Assembly (NCBI GenBank): GCA_902768435.1
Contig: CACXLJ010000015.1
Coordinates: 4,253 to 68,252 of the forward strand
DNA length: 64,000 nt
DNA from: an uncultured Bacteroidales bacterium
GTDB taxonomy: Bacteria; Bacteroidota; Bacteroidia; Bacteroidales; Muribaculaceae
Direction of reading: 5' to 3'
Shown in pieces: positions 29,748 to 62,862 of this stretch. The notes beneath the pieces were generated by a model. The model made no database searches. It saw nothing but the letters and a program-made list of their open reading frames with translations, and was not told where the DNA came from. The number at the start of each line of letters is the position of its first letter. The first letter of the stretch is position 1. Both the position numbers and the translations under genes were made by a program.

Positions 29748-30944
29748 ATGAAATCAATCAAAACAAAAGCGATATTGGTAGCCACCCTGCTGTCAACAAG
29801 CCTTGCGGGTATGGCCCAAGACGACATCAAAGACAATGAATTCAACCCCATAACCACCGGTGTGACCTCGCTGAGCATCACCCCCGATGCTCGCGGTGCC
29901 TCGATGGGTGACCTGGGTGCCGCCACCGAGAGCGACTGCAACTCGCAGTTCTGGAATCCATCGAAATATGCATTTGCCTACAGCAGTGCGGGCGTTGCCC
30001 TGTCGTACACCCCTTGGTTGCGCAAGATTGTGAACGACATCTTCCTTGCCAACCTGTCGGGTTACTGGAAACTGGGTAGCGGCGACAATCAGGCAGTGAG
30101 TGCCTCGATGCGCTATTTCTCACTTGGCGAGATTCAGACGACCGACGACGGCGGTAGCGCCATGGCCAGCATCAACCCCTTTGAAATGGCGTTTGATGTG
30201 GGTTACTCGCGCAAACTGAGCGAGAAATTCTCGATGGGCGTTGTGCTGCGCTACATCTATAGCGACCTGGGCTATTCGGAGTATTCATCGACCGAGCGCA
30301 CCAAAGGCGCTTCGGCATTCTCGGCCGACATTTCGGGTTACTTCACCACCTATCCTGTGATAGGCCGCAACGAGTGCCAGTGGTCGCTGGGTTGGAACAT
30401 CTCCAACATCGGCTCGAAAGTGTCGTACGACAACGGCGACAACCCCGCCTTCTTGCCCGCTAACCTGCGATTGGGTACTGCTTTCACCTTCCCGCTTGCC
30501 GACTATCACAACCTGACGCTGGCTGTTGATGCCAACAAACTGCTGGTACCCGTGAAGCCACGCCTCTCGGACTTCGACAATCAGGAAGATTATGAGAAGG
30601 CGCTGCAGGAATGGAAAGACGAATCGTCGATTTCGGGTATCTTCAAGTCGTTCCACGACGCTCCCGGCGGTGCCAAAGAGGAGTTGCGCGAAATCACCTT
30701 CTCGGTAGGTGCCGAGTATGCCTATAACCAGCAATTCTTCTTCCGCGCCGGTTACTTCCACGAGAACAAGTGGAAAGGTAACCGCAACTACTTCAGTCTG
30801 GGTGCCGGCTTCTCGCTGAATGTGCTCAAGATTGATGCCGCCTATATGATTGCCACCGCACAGAACAGTCCGCTCGACCAGACGCTGCGCTTCACCTTGT
30901 CGTTCGACATGGAGGGCATCAAGGGCCTCTTTGGCAGGAAATAA
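29748..30944 (+). CDS. porV: Type IX secretion outer-membrane shuttle PorV
   Basis: 'NPITTGVTSLSITPDARGASMGD...WNPSKYAF...SYTPWL...GYFHENKWKGNRNYF..LDQTLRFTL'; directly upstream of ispF. Confidence 0.92.
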   Translation: MKSIKTKAILVATLLSTSLAGMAQDDIKDNEFNPITTGVTSLSITPDARGASMGDLGAATESDCNSQFWNPSKYAFAYSSAGVALSYTPWLRKIVNDIFLANLSGYWKLGSGDNQAVSASMRYFSLGEIQTTDDGGSAMASINPFEMAFDVGYSRKLSEKFSMGVVLRYIYSDLGYSEYSSTERTKGASAFSADISGYFTTYPVIGRNECQWSLGWNISNIGSKVSYDNGDNPAFLPANLRLGTAFTFPLADYHNLTLAVDANKLLVPVKPRLSDFDNQEDYEKALQEWKDESSISGIFKSFHDAPGGAKEELREITFSVGAEYAYNQQFFFRAGYFHENKWKGNRNYFSLGAGFSLNVLKIDAAYMIATAQNSPLDQTLRFTLSFDMEGIKGLFGRK

Positions 30945-33731: not shown

Positions 33732-33916
33732 CGACAAGCCTTACGGCGGGCAATCATGTTGATGCCAACCGAACAAGCGGTGATTTCATCATACCATCAG
33801 CTAAACAATTTGAAGTTGAATACAGCGACAAGGTGGTGCTGGCACCAGGTTTCAAGGTCAATAAAGGAGGTATTTTTAAGGCCAGATTGGGTGCATCAAC
33901 CTATAAAAATCGGTAA
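33719..33916 (+). pseudogene. 3' fragment resembling the C-terminal domain of a large secreted protein (peptidase-like)
   Basis: 'YVIATSLTAGNHVD..RTSGDF....VVLAPGFKVNKGGIF' resembles a C-terminal beta domain; no signal peptide or catalytic part. Confidence 0.4.
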
Positions 33917-33973
33917 TTATTCTTTTAATTTGAGTTTATTTTTTAATTTTGCAATAACTAAACAATTATAACA

Positions 33974-34726
33974 ATGAAAAGTTTATTTTTTTCAATTACG
34001 TTAGCTCTGGCATGCTGGAGCAACATGATGATGGCAGAAATCCATGAACACGAGTATGTCCCCCTGCTCGAAGATGGTCGCCAATGGATATATTCATTTG
34101 AAGAAGGCATTTGGCTGGGTGAAGAATTAACAACAAGAATAGGGTTTTATAAACTTTATCTTCAAGGTGATACAGTAATAGATGGGAAAAAGCACTTAAA
34201 ATGCTACTATAAGTCTCTTTCTTCAAATAGTTATGGCTGGGCAAATGAAGACTATCCAATTGCCTATATGAGAGAGGAAGGGAAATTGATTTTCGCTGTA
34301 GATAATGAAAATAATGGCTTTTACGATGAACCCCTCTACGGAGGACCTGAAGGTTGTATTTATAATTTTGAGGACATGAGTAATGTTGAGGAAGAATTTA
34401 AGGATATTATCGATGTCTTCATAGCGGGAAAATGGAGAAGAGTCTTTAAATGGTATTATAATACTGATATTATTGAAGGCATAGGCGCTGATGGTTTTGG
34501 TGATTTGCTCTATCCTGTTCAACATGGTACAACATGCTCACATTGTGACTATAAAGACGATGATGGTCTGGTGATGATGCTGGACAAGGATGGCAATATT
34601 TTATACAAGGGTTCAGCCTATGTCAAATATCTTGAGACAAAACCCGCTGGCGACGTGAACGGTGACGGCAAGGTGAATGTCTCTGATGTCGCTGTTCTCG
34701 TCAACCTCATCCTCGGCATCAAGTAA
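33974..34726 (+). CDS. Secreted protein with a single C-terminal dockerin-type repeat
   Basis: Signal peptide; 'YVPLLEDGRQW'; ends GDVNGDGKVNVSDVAVLVNLILGIK. Confidence 0.75.
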   Translation: MKSLFFSITLALACWSNMMMAEIHEHEYVPLLEDGRQWIYSFEEGIWLGEELTTRIGFYKLYLQGDTVIDGKKHLKCYYKSLSSNSYGWANEDYPIAYMREEGKLIFAVDNENNGFYDEPLYGGPEGCIYNFEDMSNVEEEFKDIIDVFIAGKWRRVFKWYYNTDIIEGIGADGFGDLLYPVQHGTTCSHCDYKDDDGLVMMLDKDGNILYKGSAYVKYLETKPAGDVNGDGKVNVSDVAVLVNLILGIK

Positions 34727-46832: not shown

Positions 46833-49280
46833 CTAACTGATGCCCAAGATGATGTTGATTAGTGCCGACACATCGCTCACATTCACACGGCCGTCGCCGT
46901 TCACATCGGCAAGGGTTTCGTTCATCGGCGTGATGCCCAGAATCATGTTGATGAGAGCGCTCACATCGCTCACATTCACGCGGCCGTCGCCGTTCACATC
47001 GCCTTGTGCAATGGTTTGCTCCACAGGATAGTGGGCATAGAATGCCTTGATGTGAATGGCATGGTCGCCAGCAGTGGCGGCAGCCTTGTCGGGCACAAAG
47101 CGAATTTCGCGCAGCCTGATGGGGAAGGTGGCGAGCTGGTCGGCGCCTCCCAACTGGTCCATGTCGATGTGCAGGGTGTAGTCATTGCCAGGCTCAAAGC
47201 CGTTGCCGCCATTCTCAAATTTCTGGTAGTTGATTGAGGTGAACTGGTTGTTGCGCACATCAATCTGCACATACTCGATGGGCAGCGTGCTGTTGAAGGT
47301 GAGCCCTATGGTGTCGGGCAGGCTGTAGAAGAAGCGGTCGGTGAGCATTCTCACATATGGTGCCCGTGAGCTGGTGTAGGTGAAAGTGACATTGCCGTTG
47401 GCATCGAGGGCGAGTTCTTTAGCGCCCGAACCCGAGAGCATCCATCCCTCGGTCCATTGCTGAAAAAAATAGGGTGCATTGCTGATTTCGACAGTCACGC
47501 TGTCGGTATCGAGAAATTCGCCAATTTGGCAAGAGATGCGTGTGCTGCCGTTTTTTAATCCCTTGATCTTGCCGTTGTTGATTGTGGCGACAGTGGGGTC
47601 GTCAATGCTCCAGCCTAGTTGGGTGGCATCGTAGAAGTAGGTTTTGCCGGCTACTGTGGCGGTGACATCAACATCCCACTCGCGGTTGTCGACTAGCATC
47701 ATGGGGCTGACTGCAATGGCGGGCTGGGCGGGCAGTGTGACGATGGGCACGGTGGCAGCGATGCCGTTGTAAGTGGCTGTGAGTGTGCCTGTAAGTGCAT
47801 TGCCACCTGCCGTGATAGTCTCGCCGTTGGTGGTACCAATGGCCTCGTCACAGGTGAGAGTGAAACCCTTTAGGTCGTCGTTGATGAGGTCGCCATACTG
47901 GTTGTAGGCCAGCACTTGCGGGGTAGCCGAGGCATAGATGGGCAGTTGCACCTTGTGCTCGGCAAAGCGAATAGTTGCTACCTCGTTGTCGATGGGGGCG
48001 ATAGATTCGAGCAGCCAGCCGTTGGACACGGCTCGGGGACTACCCTCTGTGGTCTTGTTGATGATGGTGCCGCTTGCCAGCATCTCGGCCGAGCCGCCGG
48101 CATCGTAGTTCACCACTTCGCTCACATCGGGGTAGAGACTTTTGAGAATCTCGCACATGACGGTGGTGGAACAGCCTGCCGAGAGGCCATATTGCGGATG
48201 GGTTGACTTGTCGATGACAATCATATAGAGTTTTCGTCCGTCGGCACTGCAGCCATAGCCTGTGCGGGAGTAAATCTGTGAGTTATAGGCCTCGTCGGTG
48301 TTGCGAATGGTGAGCTCGCCCAGGTGCATGACCGGGGCATTGCCCTCCACCATGTTCTCGATCCATGGGGTGATGTGCTCACTCTCGGGTTCGTTGGTGG
48401 TCCAGCCTTGTGTGATGGTGATGGTGTCGCCCACAGTGTGTGTTGCCATGGCCTCCTTGAACGACCCGGTGGCAGTGAGGCAGGCCTCGTAGTTGCCCAG
48501 CGTCTGTCGGTCGGCGTCATTTACGATGTTCACGATGACGAAGGTCATAGGTTTGCTCACCTGCCAGCTGCTGCCTTCGGCCAGCGCCAGATAATAGTTG
48601 TCGGTGTGGTTGTTGCCGGTTTCGTCGGCACTCACCCAGTTGGTCTCGAACTGGCGAGTTCGGCCGAACGCTTCGTTCCACAGGCACATCTCGTTGTTGC
48701 GGTTGCGGCGGTTCACCTTGTTGATGGCGAGCGGATTATCGAGTTTTGGCGAGGTGAGTTGAGCAGCCCAGGTGAAGTGGCCGAATATGAGGTTCTTGTC
48801 GTGGTCGATGGCTGTTCCGGCCGTTTTCGATGGTCCGCCATCCCAGGTGTCGTTAGCGTTGTTGGTGTTGGTGTAGATGGTGTCGTTGCGCACCACAGCA
48901 CCGTAGGGCGAGCCCAACATGTAGATGCTTGAAGTGCCTTGTCCGCTCACGCACCAGAAGTTGGCATTGCAGCCTGCCAGCACGCGTTTCGACGGGGTGG
49001 AGTAGCGCTGGGCGGCCGTGGTGAGCAGTTCGGTCTTGCCCACGATGCCTTGCCCCTGCATGGTTTCGATGCGGTTGTAGGGATTGTCCATGTCGGCCTC
49101 AAGCAGGTAGACATTGAGGGGATAGCCCGGAATGCGAATGATGGTGTTCATGATTCCCGGCCCCAATTGCCGCCTGAACAGGGTGTCGACTTGGTATTCG
49201 CTGCCTCCAATCACCACCTGCGCCATAGCAGTGCAGGCAACGAGAGTAAACAGCAAAGGAAGTAGTATAGTTCTTTTCAT
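46833..49280 (-). CDS. Phosphodiester glycosidase (NAGPA/DUF2233) family + Ig-like (Big_2) + dockerin
   Basis: Signal peptide; CNANFW; SRTGYG; NYDAGGSAEM; PRAVSNG; 'WSIDDPTVATI' Big_2; two GDVNGDG repeats. Confidence 0.8.
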   Translation of the reverse strand: MKRTILLPLLFTLVACTAMAQVVIGGSEYQVDTLFRRQLGPGIMNTIIRIPGYPLNVYLLEADMDNPYNRIETMQGQGIVGKTELLTTAAQRYSTPSKRVLAGCNANFWCVSGQGTSSIYMLGSPYGAVVRNDTIYTNTNNANDTWDGGPSKTAGTAIDHDKNLIFGHFTWAAQLTSPKLDNPLAINKVNRRNRNNEMCLWNEAFGRTRQFETNWVSADETGNNHTDNYYLALAEGSSWQVSKPMTFVIVNIVNDADRQTLGNYEACLTATGSFKEAMATHTVGDTITITQGWTTNEPESEHITPWIENMVEGNAPVMHLGELTIRNTDEAYNSQIYSRTGYGCSADGRKLYMIVIDKSTHPQYGLSAGCSTTVMCEILKSLYPDVSEVVNYDAGGSAEMLASGTIINKTTEGSPRAVSNGWLLESIAPIDNEVATIRFAEHKVQLPIYASATPQVLAYNQYGDLINDDLKGFTLTCDEAIGTTNGETITAGGNALTGTLTATYNGIAATVPIVTLPAQPAIAVSPMMLVDNREWDVDVTATVAGKTYFYDATQLGWSIDDPTVATINNGKIKGLKNGSTRISCQIGEFLDTDSVTVEISNAPYFFQQWTEGWMLSGSGAKELALDANGNVTFTYTSSRAPYVRMLTDRFFYSLPDTIGLTFNSTLPIEYVQIDVRNNQFTSINYQKFENGGNGFEPGNDYTLHIDMDQLGGADQLATFPIRLREIRFVPDKAAATAGDHAIHIKAFYAHYPVEQTIAQGDVNGDGRVNVSDVSALINMILGITPMNETLADVNGDGRVNVSDVSALINIILGIS

Positions 49281-49398
49281 CGTTGTTCAAATTTTGAAAG
49301 AATTTAAATTTAATTTGTAAATTTACTAATAATTCTTGAACTATCACCTATAAATTAATATAAATCTTTAAAATACGGTATTGGTGAGGCAAAAGAAA

Positions 49399-49422
49399 AA
49401 CCCTGGCGGGAGGGCCAGGGTT
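49399..49422 (-). terminator. Intrinsic terminator for the glycine-zipper gene
   Basis: aaccctggc...gccagggtt with the A-run at 49391-49400 read as a U-tract on the minus strand. Confidence 0.75.
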
Positions 49423-49456
49423 GTGAGTGAATACTGCGGTAAACCATTGTGCACGA

Positions 49457-50104
49457 TTAGCGCCGTGCGCGAGTGCGCAGCTGGAACGAACGCACCGTGT
49501 AGAGTTCGTTTCCGTTCGAGAAACCGATAGAGAAGTCGGCATAGCCATTTTTGAGTTTGCGGGTAGCCACAAGTTCGGCAGTGTAACGCACAGCTTTGCC
49601 AGGACCTAACTCGCTGATGATGGCAGTGGGAGAGAGGTAAATCTCCTTGGTACCAGAAACCGTGATGACCGGTGCGATGTCGTAGATGAAATCACGACTC
49701 TCGTTGCGAATCTCAAAAATAAGTTTGCCATGCTCGTCGGCATCGATATACTCGTTGCTGTTCATGTCGACAAAGCGCAAGTTCTCGACCACGAGGCCAG
49801 AATAGGGGCTGTTGTAGCCGTTCTGTCGATAGTCGTCGTAGTCATATCCGTTGTAGTAGTCCGATGTGCGGCTTTTCTCGGTTTTGGGGGCTGTTGCGGC
49901 AGCACCGATAGCGCCACCTATAGCCATACCTGCCAGAGTGCCCACTCGGCTGCCTCTCCATCCGCCTGCAATGCTGCCGACGGCCGAGCCAAACATGCCA
50001 CCTACCGAGGCTCCTGTGGCTGCGCCAAAGAACTGGCTTGACGAGGAGCAGCTGCTCAACACCAGAAGGGCAGCGCTCAATGCTGAAACTAAAGTCTTTT
50101 TCAT
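49457..50104 (-). CDS. Glycine-zipper lipoprotein
   Basis: Lipobox LSSC; GAxxGxxxG repeats; C-terminal beta domain. Confidence 0.75.
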   Translation of the reverse strand: MKKTLVSALSAALLVLSSCSSSSQFFGAATGASVGGMFGSAVGSIAGGWRGSRVGTLAGMAIGGAIGAAATAPKTEKSRTSDYYNGYDYDDYRQNGYNSPYSGLVVENLRFVDMNSNEYIDADEHGKLIFEIRNESRDFIYDIAPVITVSGTKEIYLSPTAIISELGPGKAVRYTAELVATRKLKNGYADFSIGFSNGNELYTVRSFQLRTRARR

Positions 50105-50244
50105 CGTTTTTTATGTGTTAATAGTTATTGTTTTAGTGTTTGCAAAGTGCTAAATTACAATATAAACAACTATTGTGCCAAATTTTTTAGACAAAAGAAA
50201 TGAAAATGTCGTCAAAAAGACCATTTTTCGTGATAATTAGGGGT

Positions 50245-52665
50245 TCACGACAAGATGATGTTGATGAGTGCGCTCACATCGCTCACATTCACCTTGTCGT
50301 CGCCGTTCACATCGGCACTGCTCTGGTTCATAGCCTCTAATCCCAGAATCATATTGATGAGCGCGGCAACATCGCTCACATTGATGCGTCCATCGCCATT
50401 CACATCGCCCGTGATGGTGGCTGCCACATTCGGGTAGTGGGCATATAATACCTTGAGGCTGATGGAGTAATCGCCTTTAGGCGCCGACTTGCTTGGCGAG
50501 AATTTTACCTCTTTCAGCGTAATGGGGTAGGTGCCCACCTGGTCGATTCCTCCCATTTGGTCAAGGTTGATGCGCAAGGTGTAGTCCTTGTTGGCTTCAA
50601 AACCTCCCTCAGGCTCATATTTCTCATAGTTGAGTGAGGTGAAATAGCGGTTGCGGGCATCGATTTGAACATAATCAATTGGGATGGTGCTGTTGAAGGT
50701 GAGAGCAATGGTGTCGGGGAGGCTGTAGAAGGTGATGTCCTTCTTGAGCGAGAGATAGGGCGCCCGCGACGAATTGTAGTAAAACGACAGGGTGCCGTCG
50801 GTGCTGAGCACGAGGTTGTTAGCACCCGAGGCTTTCAGTGTCCAATCGTTCCACGATTGTTTGAGAAATGGGACTGTGCTGATTTCGACCGTGACGCTGT
50901 CTTGGTCGTTGAATTCTCCAATTTGACAAGTGAAGCGTGTGCTGCCATTGCGCTTGGGCATGAGCACCCCGTTTTCGATGGTGGCTATCGATGGGTCGTC
51001 GATGCTCCAGACGAGTTTCGACGGGTCGTAGGTGTAAGTTTTGTCGTTGACTGTGGCGGTTACCTCGATGGGGTAGTCGCGGCTGTCGATGAGCAGCGGT
51101 TTTACCTTGATGGCGGGTTGTGCCATGAGGGTGGTGACGGGCAGGGTTGCCGTCATGTCGCCAAGGTGTGCAGTGAGTGTGCCGTGCGCCTCTTGTCCGG
51201 CGGCAATGAAGGTGTCGCCCTCGGTGCTGCCTATCGCCTCGTCGCAGGTGAGGGTGAAGCCTTTCACATCCTCGTTGATGAGTTCGCCTATTGCGTTGTA
51301 ACCCAGGATTTTCGGCACATAGCTCGAGTAGATGGGAGCCTCGGCTTTGAAGTCGGCAAAGGCAATAGATGCCACGGTGTTGTCTTCTTCGCCAACGGCC
51401 TCGACCATCCATCCGCAAGCCACTGCTCGGGGTGTGCCTTCGGTGGTGGTGCTGATGCACTCGTCGCCCACAATCATCATGGCCGAGCCACCGGCATCCA
51501 TGGTGGTGATGTCGGAAACATAGGGGCATAGTTGCTGCATGATGAGGCACATGGTCTCGGTGTTGCAGCCCGCCGAGCGGCCATATTTCTTGCTGAGCGA
51601 CATGTCGATGACCATCATGATGAGGTGCTTGCCGTCGGCGCTGGCGCCATAACCGGTGCGTGAATAAACCTTGGTGTTATAGTCGAGATCGTAGTTGTTA
51701 TTAGTGAGTTCGCCATTTTTCATGACCAGGCCTATGCCCTCTACCATGTTTTCGATTTCAGGACGATCGCCGCTGCCTTGCGCCGTCATGCCATAGTTGA
51801 TGGTGATTTCATCGCCCTCGGCGAGCGCCGCCATCACTTGTGCCTGTGTGCCCGAGCAGGTGATGCAGGCGTCGTAGTTGCCCAGCGTCTGCCGGTCGGC
51901 ATCGCGTACAATTCTGGTCACGACAAAAGTCATGTCGTGGTTGATTCCCCACCGCTCGCCCGCTTTGAGCGTGAGATAGTAGTTGTCGGTGTGCGTATTG
52001 CCTCGCTCACCAGTTGATATCCAGTCGGTTTCGAACTGGCGTGTGCGGGTGTAGGCGGGTGTCCACAAGGTAACATGATTGAGGATGCACCGGCGGTTCA
52101 CAGTCTCGAAAACGATGGGAGCATTGAACCTCTCGCTGGTGATGGTGGCGCTGGGTATGATGTGGTCGAAATAGAGTGTTTTGTCTCTTGAAATGGCCGT
52201 GCCTCCTGTGTAACCTGGGCCATAGCACCAGTTGTCTTCGTTGGTTTCGGCGTTGACACAGATGCTGTCGTTCCTGATTACTGAGCAGTAGGGGGTGCCG
52301 AGTTCAAACTCGCGTGGGGGCCACTCGGCCGAAACGCACCAGAAGTTGCTGTTGCATGCCACAATGGGTCTCTTGGTTGCCGTGCGATTGCGTTTCACGG
52401 CATTGAGCAGCAACTCGGAACGGCCCACAGTGCTGTAGCCCAGTGTGGTTTCAACACGGTTGTTGGGGTTGTTGAGGTCGGTTTCGGTAATGTAGATGTT
52501 GAGCGGATAATCGGGAATGCGCACAATGGTAGTGACCATGCCAGGTCCTACCTGGCGGCGGTATAGTGTGTCGGTCTCATAGGTGTTGCCGCCGAGTGTG
52601 ATGGCAGCAAAACCGTTGAGGGCGAACAGGGTAATGAGCAGGGAGGAGTGGAGGAAGCGTTTCAT
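50245..52665 (-). CDS. Phosphodiester glycosidase family + Ig-like + dockerin (paralogue of 46833-49280)
   Basis: Same architecture: CNSNFW, SRTGYG, MDAGGSAMM, PRAVACG, two dockerin repeats; ATG 52665 preferred. Confidence 0.8.
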   Translation of the reverse strand: MKRFLHSSLLITLFALNGFAAITLGGNTYETDTLYRRQVGPGMVTTIVRIPDYPLNIYITETDLNNPNNRVETTLGYSTVGRSELLLNAVKRNRTATKRPIVACNSNFWCVSAEWPPREFELGTPYCSVIRNDSICVNAETNEDNWCYGPGYTGGTAISRDKTLYFDHIIPSATITSERFNAPIVFETVNRRCILNHVTLWTPAYTRTRQFETDWISTGERGNTHTDNYYLTLKAGERWGINHDMTFVVTRIVRDADRQTLGNYDACITCSGTQAQVMAALAEGDEITINYGMTAQGSGDRPEIENMVEGIGLVMKNGELTNNNYDLDYNTKVYSRTGYGASADGKHLIMMVIDMSLSKKYGRSAGCNTETMCLIMQQLCPYVSDITTMDAGGSAMMIVGDECISTTTEGTPRAVACGWMVEAVGEEDNTVASIAFADFKAEAPIYSSYVPKILGYNAIGELINEDVKGFTLTCDEAIGSTEGDTFIAAGQEAHGTLTAHLGDMTATLPVTTLMAQPAIKVKPLLIDSRDYPIEVTATVNDKTYTYDPSKLVWSIDDPSIATIENGVLMPKRNGSTRFTCQIGEFNDQDSVTVEISTVPFLKQSWNDWTLKASGANNLVLSTDGTLSFYYNSSRAPYLSLKKDITFYSLPDTIALTFNSTIPIDYVQIDARNRYFTSLNYEKYEPEGGFEANKDYTLRINLDQMGGIDQVGTYPITLKEVKFSPSKSAPKGDYSISLKVLYAHYPNVAATITGDVNGDGRINVSDVAALINMILGLEAMNQSSADVNGDDKVNVSDVSALINIILS

Positions 52666-52843
52666 ATATGTAGATTTTATTTTCAAGTTGTAAATTTACT
52701 AAATATTTTATTTTTCTTGAAATTAATTGGGCAAAATTGTCCTGATTTTGTGTGAAACGCAAAAAAGTGCGAGAAAAATGCGTCATCACACAATAAATAT
52801 AGGAAAGTTGCGTTAAGAGTATTAAAACAATCATGATTGAAGT

Positions 52844-55800
52844 ATGAAATTTTTGAAAAAAACACGATATGTGAAGTACGCCTTGGCGCTCGTGCTGCTG
52901 TTTGCCGCTATGCCTAAGGCCGCAGCCTTTGATGCCTCGCTCAAGGCCGACTCGTCGCGTCTGTCACAGGGCCGATGGGTGAAAATCAAGGTAACCGAGA
53001 CGGGAATACATGCCATCACAGCCGCCGATGCCCAAAAGTGGGGCATGAGCGACCTGAGCAAGGTGCATGTGTTTGGTTTTGGTGCTGCAAGGATTCCTGA
53101 CAGGCTGACCCAAGACATTCCCGACGACTTGCCTCAGATTCCTGTGGTGCGTTGCGGCGACAAAATCTTGTTTTATGCCCAAGGTCCCGTGCAATGGAAA
53201 CCTACATCGCTGAATGTGAACTTTACTCCCAGCCAGCATCCTTACTCCACGGCCGGTTACTACTTCGTGACCGACGACAGCCGATTCACTGATGTGGAGA
53301 TAACCAGGTCGTCACAGCCAGTGAGCGGTGCTGTGCAAAACAAGGTTTTCGGCCGCGTGTATCATGAGCAGGAACTGGTGAATCCGGGCGAAACCGGCCA
53401 TCAGTTGCTGGGCGAGGATTTCAGCATCACTACTACCCAGACCTTTAACTTTAACCTTGAAGGCTATATCGATGGGGGTAATATCAACATCTGCACAAAC
53501 TTTGCCGCCAGCATGTCGGATGGCATGAACACAGGCCAGACGGGCAGACTCACTTACAAGTACAACAATATCAATTTGCCCTATAACTCAATCTATGACA
53601 GGTTGACGCAGGTATCAAACAACACTACTCAGCACTATTTGACAACGAACTCGATCAAGTCGTTCACCATGACGGGAACCAAGAATCTTGCCTATGAGGT
53701 GACTTTCAATCCAGTGGGAACCGTCTATCTTGCTCGTCTAAACTTCATTGCAGTGAATTACGAACGCGCTTTGGCGTTGTACAATGGCGTGATTGACTTT
53801 GGCCAGTATAATGCCAAAAGCAACATGCAGTATCAGATATCGGGCTGCACCGACCACACCCATGTGTGGGATGTGACCACACCCCACAAACCAGTGGCAA
53901 TGAATGTGAATCTCGAGGGCGACAAGGCCTCGTTCAGTCCCGAACTGGGCAATAGGGAATTTGTGGCCTTTGATGAGGGTGGCAGCAGCTATCCCTCGCC
54001 CGTGATGGTGGGTGTGATGAAAAATCAGAACCTGCATGGCGAGCCCACCCCCGACATGATTATCATCAGTCACAGAGAATATATGTCGCAGGCTCAGCGC
54101 CTTGCCGACATGCACACCACAATCGACTCGATGCGGGTGCTCGTGGTTGACCAGGACGATGTGTTTGATGAGTTTTCGAGCGGAACTCCCGATGCCCTTG
54201 CCTACAGAATGATGTGCAAACTCTTCTATGACCGTGGCAAAGATGCCGAGGGTCACCAGTTGGGTTACCTGCTGCTCATGGGCAATGGCACCTACGATAA
54301 CCGACAGATTACTACCCGTTTCAAGACTGCTTCCTATCCGGCTTTGCTAACCTGGCAGACCGATGCAGGCGACAGTGAAATCACTTCGTATGTGAGCGAC
54401 GACCCCCTGGTGGTGCTCGGCGACAATACGGGTCCTGATTTTTATAACAGCAACATGAGCATTGCTGTGGGCCGCTTCCCGGTGAAGAGCGTGGCCGAGG
54501 CAAGAGTGATGGTCGACAAAGTGATCAAATATGTGACCAATGCCGATAATGGTGCATGGAAAAACAATGTGCTGTATGTTGCCGACGACGGCGATAAAGG
54601 CAACCACATGAGGCATCAGGAATCGGTCATCGATGTGTCAACCAAGCACCACGGCGAAGACATGGTGAACACCCGTGTCTACCTTGATGCTTTTGATGAG
54701 GTGAGTGCTGGTTCGGGCCGCACTTATCCCGATGCACGCACCAAGATGTACGGCACGCTGAAAGAGGGTGTTGTGTGGTGGAACTATGCAGGTCACTCGA
54801 GCACCAATGTGTGGACCGACAATGGCCTGCTCATGCGTGGAGACATCGAGCAGAACCTGTTCTACCGTCATCTCCCCATCTTGATGACCGCCAGTTGTGA
54901 GTTTACCCGTTTCGATGAGATCGAAGAGTCGGGGGGCGAACAAATCATACTCAACTCGCGTGGCGGTGCAGTGGCATTGATAAGCACGGCACGCCAGGTG
55001 TACATGGACAACAACCTGCGCCTGCACAACTCGATAGCAGAATTTGTTTATACGCACGATGAGCAAGGCCTTCCACTGCGTGTGGGCGACATTGTGCGCA
55101 AGGGCAAGAACAATACAAGTCGCGACAGCAACAATTCACGCTTCCTGCTCTTCGGCGACCCAGCGATGCGTCCAGCATTCCCGACCTATAAAATCAAGGT
55201 CGAGACCATCAACGGCAAAGCAATTGACCCCAACAATATGCCAGTGTTCCAGGCTCGCCAGACGCTCACTTTTGCCGGTTCGGTGGTCGATGCTAAAGGC
55301 AACAAACTGAGCGACTTCAATGGCCCGCTGGTGTCGACGCTCTTCGACTGTGAACAGTCGGTCATCACGCATGGCTACAGCACTCCAAACGACAAAGGCG
55401 GACAAGTCATCTACAACGACCGTTTTAACAAGTTGGCCGTGAATGTAGATACAGTGACCAACGGCTCATTCTCGTTCAGGCTCACCATCCCGTCGGAGGT
55501 GATGGCCACCTACGACAACTTCCAGCCTGCGTGGATCAGCCTGTACGCCTATGACAACCACTCGTTGTCGAACAAAAAATGGAACGGCGGTTTGCGTGAG
55601 GCGCAAGGCTCTAACGGTGACTTCTATATCTATGGCTACGACGACACGATTGTGGCCGACACCATAGGTCCCGAAATCAGTGTGTTTGCCATCAACTCGG
55701 TTGACTTCAAGGATGGTGACGATGTGAACGAGTCGCCCCTTGTTCTCGCCACAGTGCGCGATAAGTCGGGCATTAACTTGTCGACAAGCGGCATTGGCCA

Positions 55801-56326
55801 TTCTATCACGCTCACGCTCGATGATGAGAAGACCTTCAATGATGTGACCTCGTTCTACACGCCTATCGCCACCGACGAGGGTACGGCAGGCGACATCAAC
55901 TATGTGCTGCAGAATCTTGAGAATGGCCACCACACGCTCACAATCAAGGTGTGGGATGTGTTCAACAATTCATCGGAAAAAAGCGTTGTCTTCAATGTGG
56001 TGACAGGCCTGAAACCCGACCTGTATGACATCTATACCGACGCCAATCCCGCATCGGTTTCGGCCAACTTCTATGTGAAGCACAACAGGCCCGATGCCGT
56101 GCTTACCATCAGACTTGAAATCTATGACCTGCTTGGACGCATGGTGTGGAGCACCACCCAAACGGGTCGCTCTGACCTGAATACATCGTTCCCCATCAGT
56201 TGGGATTTGACCGACATGAGCGGCCACCGGGTGCCTCGCGGCATCTATGTTTACCGCGCTTCGGTATCGACCGATGGCGAACGCGAGGCTACCAAGTCGC
56301 GCAAGATTGCGGTCACTGCCCAATGA
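52844..56326 (+). CDS. porU: Type IX secretion sortase PorU (peptidase C25 family), copy 1
   Basis: GRWVKIKV..GI N-terminus, QNLHG..PDMII, EFSSGTPD, YVSDD, GRFP, NYAGH...ASCEF His/Cys pair, LFGDPA, T9SS-type C-terminal domain. Confidence 0.9.
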   Translation: MKFLKKTRYVKYALALVLLFAAMPKAAAFDASLKADSSRLSQGRWVKIKVTETGIHAITAADAQKWGMSDLSKVHVFGFGAARIPDRLTQDIPDDLPQIPVVRCGDKILFYAQGPVQWKPTSLNVNFTPSQHPYSTAGYYFVTDDSRFTDVEITRSSQPVSGAVQNKVFGRVYHEQELVNPGETGHQLLGEDFSITTTQTFNFNLEGYIDGGNINICTNFAASMSDGMNTGQTGRLTYKYNNINLPYNSIYDRLTQVSNNTTQHYLTTNSIKSFTMTGTKNLAYEVTFNPVGTVYLARLNFIAVNYERALALYNGVIDFGQYNAKSNMQYQISGCTDHTHVWDVTTPHKPVAMNVNLEGDKASFSPELGNREFVAFDEGGSSYPSPVMVGVMKNQNLHGEPTPDMIIISHREYMSQAQRLADMHTTIDSMRVLVVDQDDVFDEFSSGTPDALAYRMMCKLFYDRGKDAEGHQLGYLLLMGNGTYDNRQITTRFKTASYPALLTWQTDAGDSEITSYVSDDPLVVLGDNTGPDFYNSNMSIAVGRFPVKSVAEARVMVDKVIKYVTNADNGAWKNNVLYVADDGDKGNHMRHQESVIDVSTKHHGEDMVNTRVYLDAFDEVSAGSGRTYPDARTKMYGTLKEGVVWWNYAGHSSTNVWTDNGLLMRGDIEQNLFYRHLPILMTASCEFTRFDEIEESGGEQIILNSRGGAVALISTARQVYMDNNLRLHNSIAEFVYTHDEQGLPLRVGDIVRKGKNNTSRDSNNSRFLLFGDPAMRPAFPTYKIKVETINGKAIDPNNMPVFQARQTLTFAGSVVDAKGNKLSDFNGPLVSTLFDCEQSVITHGYSTPNDKGGQVIYNDRFNKLAVNVDTVTNGSFSFRLTIPSEVMATYDNFQPAWISLYAYDNHSLSNKKWNGGLREAQGSNGDFYIYGYDDTIVADTIGPEISVFAINSVDFKDGDDVNESPLVLATVRDKSGINLSTSGIGHSITLTLDDEKTFNDVTSFYTPIATDEGTAGDINYVLQNLENGHHTLTIKVWDVFNNSSEKSVVFNVVTGLKPDLYDIYTDANPASVSANFYVKHNRPDAVLTIRLEIYDLLGRMVWSTTQTGRSDLNTSFPISWDLTDMSGHRVPRGIYVYRASVSTDGEREATKSRKIAVTAQ

Positions 56327-56445
56327 GGCTGTTGAATGGTTTTGTAGATACCTTGACGAACGATAATGGAAGAACATTTTGTTTGTTAAACAAAAAATGA
56401 TTATTTTTGCACTTTGATATATATAGATATTTAATATTAACATAG

Positions 56446-57096
56446 ATGAGCGTCAACAAAAATATGCCCAAAATGACCATGCCAGAGCCCACACTAAGGC
56501 GATTGCCATGGTATTTGGCGTATGTGCGTCTGCTTGAACGCAGGAACATTGAATATGTCTCATCGACGCAGATATCAAAAGAGATAAATGTAGACGCCTC
56601 GCAGATTGCCAAGGACTTGTCGTTCTTGAACATCAAAGGCAAGACCCGCATAGGCTACGAGGTGAGCATGCTGGTGAAGGAACTGACCGATTTCCTGGGA
56701 TTCAAGAGCCGTCACACGGCATTTGTGATTGGCGCAGGCAGCCTGGGCGCTGCCTTGATGCAGGATTCGGGCTTGTCGCAATATGGCCTGAATATCGTTG
56801 CGGGTTTTGATGTTGACCCCAAACTCATTGGCACCCATGTGGGCGGCATTCCCATCTACGACATGGCCCAACTGGCCCAGCGCCAGCAAGAATATGGCGC
56901 GACCATCGCCATTCTCTCGGTTCCTGTGGAGCATGCCCAGGAAGCGACCAATGTCATTGTGTCGGCAGGGCTGAAGGCTATATGGAATTTCACGCCTTTC
57001 AGAATTAAAGTACCTGACGATATTGTGATACAGAATACATCGATTTATGCACATCTTGCGCTCATTTACAACCGCATGAGTGCTAAAATGAAATAA
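56446..57096 (+). CDS. rex: Redox-sensing transcriptional repressor Rex
   Basis: PEPTLRRLPWY, SQIAKDLS, GKTRIGY, GAGSLG, WNFTP. Confidence 0.95.
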   Translation: MSVNKNMPKMTMPEPTLRRLPWYLAYVRLLERRNIEYVSSTQISKEINVDASQIAKDLSFLNIKGKTRIGYEVSMLVKELTDFLGFKSRHTAFVIGAGSLGAALMQDSGLSQYGLNIVAGFDVDPKLIGTHVGGIPIYDMAQLAQRQQEYGATIAILSVPVEHAQEATNVIVSAGLKAIWNFTPFRIKVPDDIVIQNTSIYAHLALIYNRMSAKMK

Positions 57097-57101
57097 CTGC
57101 T

Positions 57102-57680
57102 GTGAAGATACTGGTGGTGAAGGACATAGAAACGGCAAAGACGGCCAACGACCTGCGAGTGCGTCTCGTGGCCGACTCGGCATTGCTGCCGAGCGGCAAG
57201 CCGTTTTTTGTGCCCGACTTTGCAACGCGCTTCACAGGCCGCATTGCATTGGCATTGCGCATGGGCAGGCTTGGCAAGCACATCGCTGCCAAATTTGCGC
57301 ACCGTTACTTCAGCACTGTGGCAGCCTGTTGCATGGTAACCCCTCATGAAGGGCAATGCAATGGCATGAATGCCGAGGAGGATGCCCGCTTGCTGTCGTT
57401 CGACGGATCGGTGCTGCTGGGCGACTTTCTGCCCTATGACGGTCAAAGCGACCTGAATGTGAGCCTTTGCAACGAGAAGGGGCAAGAAGGGACATGGCTG
57501 CTGCCAAAAACCGCCCCCATATTTCATGGGCTCATCGAGGAATTGAGCCGATACTTCACACTCAAGATGGGTGACCTGATCCTGTGCGATAGCGGCAAGG
57601 AGGTGGTCGACTTGAATATGGGCGGTGAAGTACACGGCTCGGTGTGTGGCGAAGCATCGTTGATAACAAGAGTCAGATGA
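57102..57680 (+). CDS. Degenerate fumarylacetoacetate-hydrolase-family protein
   Basis: 'DSALL..GKPFFVPDF', 'RLGKHIAAKFAHRY', 'SRYFTLKMGDLI'; canonical acidic metal ligands not apparent. Confidence 0.8.
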   Translation: MKILVVKDIETAKTANDLRVRLVADSALLPSGKPFFVPDFATRFTGRIALALRMGRLGKHIAAKFAHRYFSTVAACCMVTPHEGQCNGMNAEEDARLLSFDGSVLLGDFLPYDGQSDLNVSLCNEKGQEGTWLLPKTAPIFHGLIEELSRYFTLKMGDLILCDSGKEVVDLNMGGEVHGSVCGEASLITRVR

Positions 57681-57716
57681 TATTGAAGAAAAATAAATAA
57701 CTAAACAGATACAATT

Positions 57717-60700
57717 ATGCTAAAAAAGAATTTTCTAAAGTTTGCAGGTATGGTGTTGCTGGCAATGGGTGCCATCTCCAGCGCACAGGCATTGAGCCTG
57801 TCGACCTTTACGACAACATCCAAGTTGGCCAATGGACACTGGGTGAAAATTCAGATTCCTGAGAGTGGTGTTTATGAGATCACTTATGACGAACTCAGGG
57901 ATATGGGATTCAATAATGCTAATAGTGTTAGGGTCTACGGTTGTGGCGGCTATATGCTCAGCGAGGTGCTCGACGGGTCGCAGCCCGATGATCTGGTTCA
58001 GGTTCCTGTGCAGCGTTATGGCGACAAGCTTTGCTTCTATGCCAAGGGCCCGGTGAGTTTCTCTTTTGACGATCTGACTTCGACATCGCCCCATTTCTCG
58101 CGCACAGTGAATGCTTATTCTCAGTATGGCTACTATTTCCTGACCGAGAACATTGGCAATGAACTTTCGGTGAATGTGTCGTCGGCAACTCCCTCAACTG
58201 GAACGATAGGACATGCATCAAGCTACGATTACACCTATCATGAAGCAGAGTTGACTTCACTCACGCTTTCGGGAAAGAATCTCCTGGGTGAGGTGATTCC
58301 TGCGCCTGATAATTTCACATTGCCCTATTCGCTTCCTAACAGGGAACCGGGTTCGCCTGTGACTGTGACAGGCTGTGTTGCCGCCTCGATTTCGCCTAAT
58401 ACTTCAAGCATTACCGTGTCGGGTTATGTGAAATCGTACATGAACTCTGGCAGTGAAAGAGACACGCTGAGTTTTACGAGTTCTTCATCACGCATCTATA
58501 GTCTGACGGGAGAGATAGCCTATAATTATGCTACTCCAACGACCACGATTACTCCTAAGCGCGATCAAGACAATGGTACAATTGATTTTGGTGTGACTTG
58601 TTCGAGTGGAACAACAGGGGGTACTGTAACCAGAGCCTATCTTGATTATTGCATTTTGACTTATCTTCGCCAAAATGTGATTGGCGACGATGGCCAGTTC
58701 AGAATGAATCTGCTCAAGGTGACTCCTTCTGACCGTATTGACCTCCCCAATGCATCGCAAAATCTGGTGGTGTGGAACATCGACAATGAATCCAACCCTG
58801 TGCAATATAACTACAGCGATTATACTGGCGGTTCGACTCCAGTGAAGGCGTTCACCCCGGGTTACACCAAGAACTGGACTCAGTTTGTGGCATTTGACCC
58901 CACGATGACGCTGAAAAAGATTACGGCCTATGAGGATGTCGCAAACCAGAACATCCATGGTCTGCCGAGCCCCGACATGGTTATCTTGACCGACAAGGAG
59001 TATCTGGAGCATGCCGAGCGTCTGGCTCAGATGCACCGTGAGCATGATAACATGATTGTTCATGTGGTGGAGCAGGGACAGGTGTTCAACGAGTTCTCGA
59101 GCGGTACGCCCGATGCTATGGCAGTGCTCCTGATGAACAAGATGTTCTATGACCGCAACAAGACTAAATTCCAACACTTCCTGGTTTTGGGTTGCGGTTC
59201 GTTTGACAACCGTGGTATGATTTCGAACAAGCCAAACCGTATTATCACTTACCAGAGCGATAACAGTCACGATGGTGACAAGACCTATGTGTGTGACGAC
59301 TTCTTCGGTCATCTTGCCGATGATTCGGGACACGATCCTAACGCAGACAAGCTGCTCATAGGCGTGGGCCGCATGCCTTCGATCGATGCCGACGAGGCTC
59401 GTACCGATGTTGACAAGACTATTAACTATGTGACCAATCCTGATTATGGTGTGTGGCGTAACAGCGCATTTGTTGCTGCCGACGATTATAATTCCGGCAT
59501 GCACACCTTCCAGGGCGATGCCGCTGCCGAACTCATGGAAACTGACCTTGATTTAGGTATAAATGTCGACAAGGTGTATGTCGAGATGTATCCCCGTGCT
59601 TCTGAAACAAGCGAACCTGGTTCGACACTCTCAAAGCGCACAACACTCATAGGCCGTGAAAAATGGAAAGAAGACTGGCTGCGTGGCGAGTTCTTCGCTT
59701 CTTATGTTGGCCACTCGGGCGGCGGTATTTTCACCAAAGAGGCAAAATTGTGGAGAACTATGGATGTGAAGAGCACCAACAACCAGTTCTTGCCCATCAT
59801 GACCACAGCCTCGTGCGATGTGGCACAATATGACTCTGATTCACGCGGTATTGCCGAGCACATGTTCCACTATCCCAATGGTGGTGCCATTGCGCTGATG
59901 ACCTCAACCCGCAGCGTTTATGCCGCTGAGAACGACCCGCTCAACCGAGCATTCATTCGCGGTCTGTTCTCGTTCAACGAGACAGGTGTGATGCCCACTA
60001 TCGGTTATGCCTACATGAAGGCTAAGCAGTATAAAGGCACTTCTTCGAACGCCAACAAGATGAGTTTCTGTCTGCTGGGTGACCCTGCTATCAAGGTCAA
60101 TTATCCTAAGCCCTACTTCAAGGTGACTTCAATCAACGGTACCGATGTGACTGCAACCAATGCCTCGGCTGTGTCGGTAGCTCCATTGACTAAACTCGAG
60201 GTACACGCCAAGGTGATGAAACCAGACGGCTCGGGTGTGAACACTGCTTTCAACGGCGATGCAACGCTCACGCTCTATGATGTGAAGAAATTCTATAAAT
60301 CTTATAAATTCATGGAAGACAAGGTGTGGAAAACCCGCCGTATTCACTATCCGCGCAATTTGCTCGCACAGGTTTCGGGCCGCGTGGTGAATGGTGAATT
60401 CACCGGTTCGGTGATTGTTCCCCGAAATCTGGTGGCTCAGAACGATACTGCCATGATCAGGATTTATGCTCATCAGGACAATAGCGAAGAGATGGTGAAC
60501 GGATATAGCGACAAGATTAAACTGCTGGCTTACGACGAAGCCACTGCCGGCAGCGACTCTAACGCACCGGTAATTACCGAAATGTACTTTAACGATGCTC
60601 AGACCTTCAGCGAGGGCGCTACAGTGCCCACAAACTCGGTGCTCTACATCAAGGTGACCGACGACCTGTCGGTGAACATGCAGTCGGTGTCGATGGCAGG

Positions 60701-61202
60701 TGTCATGTCGCTTGTCATGGATAACGGCAAGTTGAGTTATCCCGAGGTGAGGAACTTCGCTCACATGAGCGACGAGGGCAAGCTGCTCTCAATCGCCTTC
60801 CCCATGAACGGTCTTACCGAGGGCGAGCACATGCTCACCTACACCGTGTATGATGCTGCCGGCAACATTGCAGTGCGTTCTATCTCGTTTGTGGTTGATC
60901 CTGCCTCCGATATGGCGCTCGATGTACAGGAAGATCCTGTGATCACCAAGGCCACTATCGACATGACCACCAACATGAAGAATGCTCCGGCTGTGACGCT
61001 CAAGATTACCGATGCCACCGGCAACCTGGTATTCAAGACCGATGTCACTTCGTTCCCCTATGAGTGGAATCTCAAGGATAAGAATGGCAAAAAGGTTCCT
61101 GCAGGTCTTTACCGTTACTTCGGCAGCTACAACGACGGACTCGGCACCTATGGCGGTACCGACATTAAGACGCTTGTTGTTGTTGACCCTGTGAACAACT
61201 AA
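57717..61202 (+). CDS. porU: PorU-like C25 peptidase, copy 2
   Basis: GHWVKIQI..GV, QNIHG..PDMVI, EFSSGTPD, CDDFFG, GRMP, YVGH...ASCD His/Cys pair, LLGDPA, T9SS-type C-terminal domain. Confidence 0.85.
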   Translation: MLKKNFLKFAGMVLLAMGAISSAQALSLSTFTTTSKLANGHWVKIQIPESGVYEITYDELRDMGFNNANSVRVYGCGGYMLSEVLDGSQPDDLVQVPVQRYGDKLCFYAKGPVSFSFDDLTSTSPHFSRTVNAYSQYGYYFLTENIGNELSVNVSSATPSTGTIGHASSYDYTYHEAELTSLTLSGKNLLGEVIPAPDNFTLPYSLPNREPGSPVTVTGCVAASISPNTSSITVSGYVKSYMNSGSERDTLSFTSSSSRIYSLTGEIAYNYATPTTTITPKRDQDNGTIDFGVTCSSGTTGGTVTRAYLDYCILTYLRQNVIGDDGQFRMNLLKVTPSDRIDLPNASQNLVVWNIDNESNPVQYNYSDYTGGSTPVKAFTPGYTKNWTQFVAFDPTMTLKKITAYEDVANQNIHGLPSPDMVILTDKEYLEHAERLAQMHREHDNMIVHVVEQGQVFNEFSSGTPDAMAVLLMNKMFYDRNKTKFQHFLVLGCGSFDNRGMISNKPNRIITYQSDNSHDGDKTYVCDDFFGHLADDSGHDPNADKLLIGVGRMPSIDADEARTDVDKTINYVTNPDYGVWRNSAFVAADDYNSGMHTFQGDAAAELMETDLDLGINVDKVYVEMYPRASETSEPGSTLSKRTTLIGREKWKEDWLRGEFFASYVGHSGGGIFTKEAKLWRTMDVKSTNNQFLPIMTTASCDVAQYDSDSRGIAEHMFHYPNGGAIALMTSTRSVYAAENDPLNRAFIRGLFSFNETGVMPTIGYAYMKAKQYKGTSSNANKMSFCLLGDPAIKVNYPKPYFKVTSINGTDVTATNASAVSVAPLTKLEVHAKVMKPDGSGVNTAFNGDATLTLYDVKKFYKSYKFMEDKVWKTRRIHYPRNLLAQVSGRVVNGEFTGSVIVPRNLVAQNDTAMIRIYAHQDNSEEMVNGYSDKIKLLAYDEATAGSDSNAPVITEMYFNDAQTFSEGATVPTNSVLYIKVTDDLSVNMQSVSMAGVMSLVMDNGKLSYPEVRNFAHMSDEGKLLSIAFPMNGLTEGEHMLTYTVYDAAGNIAVRSISFVVDPASDMALDVQEDPVITKATIDMTTNMKNAPAVTLKITDATGNLVFKTDVTSFPYEWNLKDKNGKKVPAGLYRYFGSYNDGLGTYGGTDIKTLVVVDPVNN

Positions 61203-61250: not shown

Positions 61251-61292
61251 AACACCCGGTGACTGAAAAGTCTGGTGCACCGGGTGTTTTTC
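61251..61292 (+). terminator. Intrinsic terminator
   Basis: aacacccggtg ... caccgggtgtt followed by T run. Confidence 0.8.
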
Positions 61293-61381
61293 TTGAAAAG
61301 AGTGATAATCATTGTCACTTAATTTTTAAAAAGGCAGAAATTTGTATTTTTGTGTCGTTAAGGCTATAGAAGGTTGATTCT

Positions 61382-62281
61382 ATGACAAAACTGAAAGATT
61401 ACATATCGTTGCTGCGTGTGCCACAATGGGCCAAGAACGCCTTTGTGGCTTTGCCGCTGTTTTTCGACGGTTCGATGACCGACACGCATCGCCTGTGGCT
61501 CATGCTGGTGGCGGTTATCTGTTTCTCGCTTGCCGCGAGCGCCGTTTATTGTCTTAACGATTTAGTGGATGTGGCAGCCGACCGGTTGCATCCCGTCAAG
61601 TGCCAGCGTCCACTGGCATCGGGCAGGGTGAGTCGCGCCGAGGGGCTTGTGCTCATGCTGCTGTGCATAGCGCTTGCCGTGACTGCATGCCTGTTGCTGC
61701 TGCCCATGTCGGCATTCTACATTCTGCTGGTCTATGTGGCGCTCAATGTGGCCTACTCGCTGTTACTGAAACAGGTGGGCATCCTCGACATGCTCATAGT
61801 GGCGTTCTTCTATGTGCTGCGCATCTTGTTTGGTGGTGCGGCAGTGTCGATACATCCCACTTCGTGGCTGTTGCTCATGGCATTCTTGCTGGCGTTGTTC
61901 CTGGTGATAGCTAAGCGTCGCGACGATGTGCTGGTCATGGAGCAAGGCGGCTCGTCGGTGCGCAAGAGTGCCCAGGCCTATAACCTTGAATTCATCAACC
62001 TGGCCTTGACTCTGGTGGCGACCATCACCATTGTGTGCTACATCATGTACACGATGTCGGCCGAAACCATCAGTCATTTCCACACTGAGTATGTCTATGC
62101 CACTTCGGTGTTTGTGATTGCCGGCATTCTGCGTTACATGCAGGTGACGATTGTGGCGGGCAAGAGCGGCAGCCCCACCAAGGTGCTGTTCAAGGACCGT
62201 TTTGTGCAGCTGTGCCTCATAGGGTGGATTCTTGCCTTTGTATTGATTATTTATCTCCCGCAATGGTGCCAAGCAGCGTAG
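61382..62281 (+). CDS. UbiA-family prenyltransferase, decaprenyl-phosphate phosphoribosyltransferase-like
   Basis: 'LLRVPQWAKN', 'YCLNDLVD..ADRLHPVK..RPLASG', 'KRRDD' signature of the phosphoribosyltransferase branch. Confidence 0.85.
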   Translation: MTKLKDYISLLRVPQWAKNAFVALPLFFDGSMTDTHRLWLMLVAVICFSLAASAVYCLNDLVDVAADRLHPVKCQRPLASGRVSRAEGLVLMLLCIALAVTACLLLLPMSAFYILLVYVALNVAYSLLLKQVGILDMLIVAFFYVLRILFGGAAVSIHPTSWLLLMAFLLALFLVIAKRRDDVLVMEQGGSSVRKSAQAYNLEFINLALTLVATITIVCYIMYTMSAETISHFHTEYVYATSVFVIAGILRYMQVTIVAGKSGSPTKVLFKDRFVQLCLIGWILAFVLIIYLPQWCQAA

Positions 62282-62850
62282 TTGTATTTGATTTCGATGG
62301 CACGCTCACTGTGCGTGACACTCTGCCATGTCTGTTGCGAGGTCTTGCTGGTAGCCGCTGGCGTTACCTGTGTGGCCTTGTGGCATGCGCCCCGTGGCTT
62401 ATGGCCTACAAGTTGCGACTCATTGAGGGCGGAAAAGCAAAGGAGCGCTTGACCTCACACTTAGTGAAAGGCATGTCGCAAACCGAGTTTGAGACCCGTT
62501 GCCAGACGATTGCCCACGAGAATCGGGCGAGGCTGCTGCGCAACGATGTGCTACAGAAACTGGAGTCGCATGTTGCCAGTGGGGCAGCCGTGTATGTGTG
62601 TTCGGCCAATTTTGCCACTTGGGTTGAAGCGTTTCTTGCGCCGATAAATGTGCCTGTGGTGGCCACTGGCCTCGAGGTGAGCAATGGCGTGCTCACGGGC
62701 CGTTTTTCCACCCCCAACTGTAATGGCGAGCAAAAGTGGCTTCGCATGCAACCTTTTCTTGCCGACGACACACAGCTTGAGGTGTATGGCGACAGCAAGG
62801 GCGATGTTGCCTTGATGAGTCATGCCCAGAAAACTCATTTAATAAAATAA
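62263..62850 (+). CDS. HAD-IB family phosphatase
   Basis: FDFDGTLT, CSAN, NCNGEQK, YGDSKGD; ATG 62263 overlaps the ubiA 3' end. Confidence 0.9.
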   Translation: MVPSSVVVFDFDGTLTVRDTLPCLLRGLAGSRWRYLCGLVACAPWLMAYKLRLIEGGKAKERLTSHLVKGMSQTEFETRCQTIAHENRARLLRNDVLQKLESHVASGAAVYVCSANFATWVEAFLAPINVPVVATGLEVSNGVLTGRFSTPNCNGEQKWLRMQPFLADDTQLEVYGDSKGDVALMSHAQKTHLIK

Positions 62851-62862
62851 TGTATAGATGAT

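Follow-up and report, generated by a model that had tools for sequence, protein, structure and literature searches.

Two diverged, full-length PorU sortases encoded at one locus of a Muribaculaceae genome

The 64,000-nt window analysed here, a stretch of contig CACXLJ010000015.1 from an uncultured bacterium of the Muribaculaceae (order Bacteroidales), encodes two type IX secretion system (T9SS) PorU sortases, PorU-A and PorU-B, whose genes lie on the same strand with two short genes between them (Table 1). The two copies trace to a single old duplication within the family, and PorU-B, the faster-evolving of the two, has kept the PorU architecture and the catalytic His/Cys dyad under purifying selection. 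The reading that we favour, to which we give a probability of roughly 0.45, is that PorU-B is a second active sortase that shares the PorV/PorQ scaffold with PorU-A and is dedicated to some of the cargo or to an acceptor. To our knowledge, all mechanistic work on T9SS cargo processing comes from organisms in which PorU, PorZ, PorV and PorQ each occur once. In the literature that we searched, we found no paper describing PorU paralogy or duplication, including in the T9SS of the Muribaculaceae.

Both proteins match the curated NCBIfam equivalog model 'T9SS sortase PorU' (NF033707, cut-off 420 bits) essentially from end to end, PorU-A with 925.6 bits over model positions 2–1094 of 1095 and PorU-B with 696.1 bits over positions 2–1073. 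The Pfam model Peptidase_C25 (PF01364) finds the catalytic domain in each (E-values of 9e-85 and 3e-72, respectively), and both proteins carry a Sec-type signal peptide. The sole solved structure matched by either sequence is that of Porphyromonas gingivalis PorU (PG0026, PDB 6ZA2, a chain of 1156 residues), which aligns with residues 34–1160 of PorU-A at 570 bits and with residues 30–1146 of PorU-B at 352 bits. The domain order of 6ZA2, namely an N-terminal cluster, the catalytic domain, Ig-like domains and a C-terminal domain (CTD), is common to both window proteins. Specifically, the motifs NYAGH (His651) and TASCE (Cys685) of PorU-A and SYVGH (His666) and TASCD (Cys700) of PorU-B share alignment columns with NYAGH and TATCD of 6ZA2, where the dyad is presumably His657/Cys690 in the published numbering. 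A first-pass annotation of this DNA had described two full-length PorU proteins with the same domain order and had quoted the dyad motifs of each. The model matches, the C25 domain and the 6ZA2 alignments bear out that description, and every quoted motif is present and aligned, both between the copies and with 6ZA2. The two proteins are 29% identical to one another over ~1180 columns (BLASTP, E-value 8e-126), and they are exactly the two PorU proteins encoded by the source genome (99.9% complete, 2.75 Mb).

An AlphaFold2 model of PorU-B, computed with 55 homologs (pLDDT 88.6, pTM 0.83), returns 6ZA2 as its top fold match in the PDB (E-value 5e-76, ~1200 aligned columns, TM-score 0.51–0.54). 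In the model, the C-terminal tail of PorU-B consists of seven beta strands at residues 1066–1155. The first-pass annotation had given both copies a T9SS tail, and a C-terminal beta-sandwich is present on both. The PorU-A tail gives a marginal TIGR04183 match (22.8 bits; 24.7 bits with neighbours, which is above the cut-off), while the PorU-B tail has no TIGR04183 match and instead matches FlgD_ig (28.6 bits, above the cut-off) and CHU_C.

Two other identities were considered for these proteins. The first-pass annotation had allowed that one copy might be a generic gingipain-like cargo protease, and for PorU-B this is excluded by the NF033707 score and the fold match to 6ZA2. The gingipains RgpB and Kgp have the C25 catalytic fold in common with the window proteins and match the PorU-B model over its catalytic and Ig part only (E-value 1e-18, ~430 residues); both window proteins have the PorU-specific N-terminal cluster. 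The gingipain-like reading fails for both copies, given that each has this N-terminal region and passes NF033707. Membership of the PorU-related second family that NCBI names 'putative type IX secretion system sortase PorU2' (NF052324, PorU_rel_Nterm) was likewise rejected: the cut-off is 450 bits, of which PorU-B reaches a weak 74.8, and PorU-A has no match. These comparisons show both proteins to be genuine, full-length PorU with an intact His/Cys dyad.

Phylogenetic trees inferred with FastTree (115 sequences) and with IQ-TREE under LG+G4 (70 sequences) agree that the family sequences form one clade (support 100), which splits into clade A (support 100) and clade B (support 100). The two clades are sisters and are nested among Bacteroidales PorU sequences. 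The inner topologies of clades A and B mirror one another, and single-copy genera hold A only, indicating that one duplication took place near the base of this Muribaculaceae-like family. The inference of an old duplication from the low identity by eye is thus right, with the A/B split placed at the base of the family. After the duplication, the two copies co-diverged, with repeated loss of B across the family and tandem amplification of B in the genus of the window. PorU-A, slow-evolving and the sole copy in single-copy genera, is by these marks the canonical copy. The nearest outgroup, genome G025 of a family labelled f2 here, has a separate duplication of its own. Phylogeny and copy number across the Bacteroidales, which had been proposed as a check, thus give a single duplication at the base of this family together with independent duplications in at least three other Bacteroidales lineages, one common to families f4 and f12, one in f10 and the one in f2. 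Duplicated loci elsewhere are L006/L050 (genome G035), L009/L051 (G027), L053/L054 (G025) and L005/L055 (G033); family f2 has two tandem PorZ genes besides its PorU duplication.

Paired PorU genes are common in the family. Counting matches at E ≤ 1e-100 in 101 genomes from 35 genera, we found at least two full-length PorU in 73 genomes (~72%), one in 27 and none in 1, and PorU-B is kept across at least 25 genera. All of the 24 congeners sampled have at least two PorU, and the usual set in the genus is one A-type copy (~890–1010 bits) with one to four tandem B-type copies (~640–740 bits). Two or more PorU are present in 5 of 14 genomes from other families of the order, and at class level, with one genome per family, two are present in 2 of the 38 genomes that have PorU. 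The rarity implied by the first-pass annotation is not supported by these counts. It had also named a common and redundant duplication as an outcome that would undo its interpretation; the duplication is indeed common, and redundancy is unlikely in view of its age, the unequal rates of the two copies and purifying selection.

The rates differ consistently. Measured from the duplication node, path lengths are 1.88 (B) and 1.33 (A), making B ~1.4 times faster, and the identity between orthologs is 33% for B versus 44% for A, B having the smaller value in every one of 253 genome pairs. All 37 B sequences retain the dyad, as do 30 of 31 A sequences. Furthermore, 57 columns, those of the C25 core included, are at least 90% conserved over A, B and the outgroup, and tandem B copies have dN/dS ratios of 0.12–0.21 in pairs with unsaturated dS. 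PorU-B is faster-evolving but, judged by its kept dyad and by purifying selection, probably still functional. It has lost most conservation in the CTD (0.41, compared with 0.71 in A) and in the Ig-like region that follows the catalytic domain, and least in the catalytic domain itself. The one dyad-less sequence is an extra A-type copy of a congener, L044 (G022:C13:226300-230700), in which His is replaced by Arg and Cys by Ala; its dN/dS against the intact counterpart in G023 is 0.26, and it may be a pseudo-enzyme paralog.

The source genome also encodes the partners of PorU. In P. gingivalis, PorU removes the CTD of T9SS-exported cargo, joins the cargo to anionic lipopolysaccharide and binds PorV. 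The attachment complex there is formed by PorU, PorV, PorZ and PorQ, and PorV, PorQ, PorZ and SprA are all encoded here, with one PorQ and a SprA/Sov translocon. By analogy, the two PorU copies would have to share the single PorV as their anchor in the outer membrane. The arrangement differs from that of P. gingivalis, which has one PorU, next to porV; here, two PorU lie 22 kb from porV and are separated from one another by rex and a gene for a fumarylacetoacetate hydrolase (FAH)-like protein, and PorZ is doubled too. The PorZ genes are in tandem outside the window (G000:C25:24618-29434) and encode proteins of 777 and 773 aa that are 32% identical and that each have a signal peptide and a CTD. 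Most congeners have two to six PorZ copies, while PorV and PorQ are single even in congeners with four to six PorU genes. Across 28 congeners, the number of B copies correlates with the number of extra PorZ copies (rho 0.57, the two being equal in 15 of the 28), a comparison that ignores relatedness. PorZ hands anionic lipopolysaccharide to PorU in P. gingivalis (PMC12365241).

The cargo tails of the source genome are unusual in their proportions. TIGR04183 gives 8 matches, and a genome-specific profile, iterated, recovers 13 proteins with a type-A CTD, of which 4 are PorU-A, PorU-B and the two PorZ, leaving ~9 canonical cargo proteins; there is one type-B CTD. Dockerins give 131 matches in 129 open reading frames (ORFs), and in 114 of these ORFs the dockerin lies within 10 residues of the stop, whereas no Pfam cohesin match was found in the source genome. 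Consistent with this, the rumen lineage 'Muribaculaceae C941' has been described as rich in dockerins and without cohesins (PMC9863278). The dockerin expansion occurs only in the genus of the window (g1) and in genus g18, and two congeners, G009 and G056, are without dockerins. These two congeners have one PorZ each, while the dockerin-rich congeners all have at least two, and G056 has 25 CTD matches versus 7–12 in the dockerin-rich congeners.

One of the dockerin proteins encoded just upstream of porU-A, that at 46833-49280, has orthologs in G056 and G009 that are 56% identical to it over residues 1–779; instead of the dockerin, both orthologs have one and the same CTD-like tail (...GIYVVVANGYAIKVLVK) at their end. 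The genome-specific CTD profile scores the G009 tail at an E-value of 3.9e-6 and gives no score to the near-identical G056 tail. In genera g21 and g47, homologs of this protein have a type-A CTD as their tail, and one homolog, in G044, is encoded just upstream of porU-A there, like the dockerin proteins here. In this lineage, at least one former cargo protein has thus exchanged its T9SS tail for a dockerin. Two small secreted proteins of 104 and 109 aa, each encoded outside the window and just downstream of a dockerin-tailed protein (G000:C17:10590-10745 and G000:C22:4963-5124), consist of little beyond a signal peptide and a type-A CTD.

In the reading that we favour, PorU-B, having kept the whole PorU architecture together with the catalytic His and Cys, would itself be exported by the T9SS and displayed at the cell surface. 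There, PorU-A and PorU-B would both attach to the one PorV, together with the one PorQ and a PorZ, and PorU-B would be subfunctionalised either to a subset of CTD cargo or to a different acceptor, presented by a paralogous PorZ. Within the genus, this system would have been elaborated further, through tandem B copies in congeners and tandem PorZ genes, of which there are two here, with rex, the FAH-like gene and the UbiA/HAD genes as bystanders. A division by cargo or acceptor, as the first-pass annotation had proposed, is favoured by the multiplication in the genus of PorZ, the partner that delivers the acceptor, and by the larger number of CTD cargo proteins, about twofold, in genomes with B. 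Specifically, the median number of TIGR04183 matches is 16 in genomes with B versus 8 in A-only genomes, and in contrasts made within genera the matches are more numerous with B in 7 of 9.

Several observations weigh against such a division of labour. The correlations with cargo and with copy number are confounded by phylogeny and by assembly completeness, and the source genome, with its few canonical cargo proteins, leaves little cargo to divide between A and B. Most genera with B have a single PorZ, and in the PorZ tree the duplications are younger than that of PorU and arose separately in g1, g37/g41/g48, g50, f2 and perhaps g18. We therefore rejected an ancient PorZ-B partner born with PorU-B, and B cannot owe its origin to a cognate PorZ. 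Conserved residue switches from A to B occur at 2 columns only, neither of them in or near the active site, on which count we also rejected a set of conserved specificity-switch residues; the comparison of A and B by alignment column yielded no clear signature of a new specificity in B. The divergence of B looks like a general relaxation that is strongest outside the catalytic and N-terminal domains.

Part of this pattern is what would be expected if PorU-B and the extra PorZ copies carried out the canonical chemistry and were kept and amplified because PorU and PorZ alone among T9SS parts are exposed at the surface, with phages, host IgA or competitors selecting for exposed modules that are diversified or interchangeable. 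Multiplication is limited to the surface-exposed PorU and PorZ, with one copy each of the barrel proteins PorV and PorQ, the excess rate of B extends over its whole length with few conserved switches, and tandem, lineage-specific amplification is typical of genes that face antagonists. The gene-wide dN/dS of the recent copies is that of purifying selection, though, and the persistence of a single B over family-level time in most genera is not typical of an arms race; we regard selection for surface variation as unlikely. Less probable again is that PorU-B is a spare or additive copy with the substrates and acceptor of PorU-A. The shared architecture and dyad would fit such a copy, as would the repeated loss of B, the 27 single-PorU genomes suggesting that it is dispensable in some lineages. 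Redundant duplicates seldom survive to 29% identity under purifying selection, however, and here the rates are strongly unequal and B is kept in most of the family; its long retention, the unequal rates and the dN/dS ratios together make plain redundancy unlikely.

The abundance of dockerins suggests a further role, in which the ~115 dockerin-tailed secreted proteins would be received, processed or held by PorU-B together with the extra PorZ. The dockerins stand at the extreme C-terminus with no Pfam cohesin to bind them, a type-A CTD or a CTD-like tail occupies the dockerin position in orthologs and homologs elsewhere, and PorZ is multiplied in the dockerin-rich congeners and single in G009 and G056, the latter having more CTDs. 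Yet B is family-wide and far older than the dockerin expansion, which is limited to g1 and g18, so that its origin cannot be put down to dockerins; two PorZ also occur in g37, g41, g48 and g50, where dockerins are few or absent; G009 and G056 probably reflect a single evolutionary event; and a dockerin is not a beta-sandwich CTD, its status as a PorU substrate being only hypothetical. We consider this role for PorU-B a long shot, and hold it just as doubtful that dockerins have to do with the amplification that B and PorZ underwent later. Equally speculative is a modular attachment complex in this genus, in which one PorV/PorQ scaffold would serve several PorU-B and PorZ paralogs, tied to a wholesale change of tag from CTD to a cohesin-less dockerin, with the paralogs acting as receptors or processors of dockerin cargo. 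If it were true, such a complex with dockerin-tailed cargo would be a new mode of protein display at the surface of a diderm cell.

Whichever explanation holds for PorU-B, a natural experiment is offered by a major family of the gut and rumen, most species of which have two diverged, intact sortases, and a genus that multiplies PorU-B and PorZ with one PorV and one PorQ offers a second one. Both bear on how the attachment complex comes by its specificity for cargo and acceptor. The tail swap raises the further question by which route more than 100 Sec-exported proteins pass across or onto the outer membrane in a cell with a complete T9SS and almost no canonical cargo. Annotation also calls for caution, as pipelines label both paralogs merely 'PorU'.

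Table 1. Coordinates of the features discussed, in window positions
Feature	Position	Strand	Description
porV	29748..30944	+	NF033710, 507.8 bits; sole PorV in the genome, ~22 kb upstream of porU-A
Two secreted NAGPA-domain proteins with a 215-aa ORF between them	46833..52686	-	Directly upstream of porU-A
NAGPA-domain proteins	46833-49280 (815 aa); 50245-52686 (813 aa)	-	PF09992; C-terminal type I dockerin, PF00404
porU-A	52844..56326	+	1160 aa; canonical PorU ortholog; signal peptide, N-terminal domain cluster, C25 catalytic domain (405-776), Ig-like domains, type-A CTD
porU-A catalytic residues	His651, nt 54794-54796; Cys685, nt 54896-54898	+	
Promoter-consensus match (Bacteroidetes, TTTG..TAnnTTTG)	56378..56409	+	Between porU-A and rex; contains the palindrome TTTGTTAAACAAA
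rex, redox-sensing transcriptional repressor	56446..57096	+	216 aa; NF003994, 296 bits
FAH-fold protein	57102..57680	+	192 aa, without signal peptide; PF01557, 25.3 bits (cut-off 23.9)
porU-B	57717..61202	+	1161 aa; family-specific, faster-evolving PorU paralog; architecture as porU-A
porU-B catalytic residues	His666, nt 59712-59714; Cys700, nt 59814-59816	+	
Terminator-like hairpin with T-run	61270..61295	+	3' of porU-B; pattern match only
Apparent accessory cluster	61382-64000		Downstream of porU-B; UbiA-type gene, overlapping HAD-IB phosphatase gene, uncharacterised protein

The order porU-A, rex, FAH-like gene, porU-B recurs at 18 loci in 13 genera. The FAH-like gene, which here ends 37 nt before porU-B, lies directly 5' of B even at loci where B is found away from A. 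We considered an operon of both sortases and the intervening genes and rejected it, because the rex/FAH-like pair also occurs away from PorU in A-only genomes (four of the five checked). The FAH-like gene is present in five of these five genomes and is therefore not dependent on B. The pair is a housekeeping spacer, in which only the adjacency of the FAH-like gene and the following B is tight.

The window contains 4 matches to the Bacteroidetes promoter consensus, against 1.5 expected. The match between porU-A and rex is a possible start of a rex/FAH-like/porU-B transcript, as judged from the consensus alone. The palindrome within it, upstream of rex, could be a Rex operator; if this and the co-transcription are true, the FAH-like gene and porU-B would be under redox control.

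Downstream of porU-B, the first-pass annotation had pointed to a lipid-linked glycosylation cluster following directly on the sortases. This is literally true of the gene order, which comprises the UbiA-type gene, the HAD gene and a third gene whose product measures 565 aa in a near-identical strain, from a different sample, that has this layout too; a link to PorU is unsupported. The UbiA-type gene resembles polyprenyl-phosphate phosphoribosyltransferases (211 bits, below the cut-off of 234), and it is present in 16 of the 101 family genomes and in none of four other congeners sampled, and never beside PorU elsewhere. We rejected a functional link between PorU and the UbiA/HAD genes because the adjacency is not conserved and the UbiA gene is sporadic. 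The genes look like an accessory cluster whose position next to porU-B is coincidental.

Two features lie further from the sortase genes. An arginine-tRNA ligase appears to be split over the overlapping ORFs 27035-27853 and 27792-28814, for which a frameshift, an error of assembly or a genuine break might account. The G+C content falls to 0.36–0.40 at window positions 20000-26000 and 32000-34000, compared with ~0.50–0.57 around them, which suggests acquired islands.

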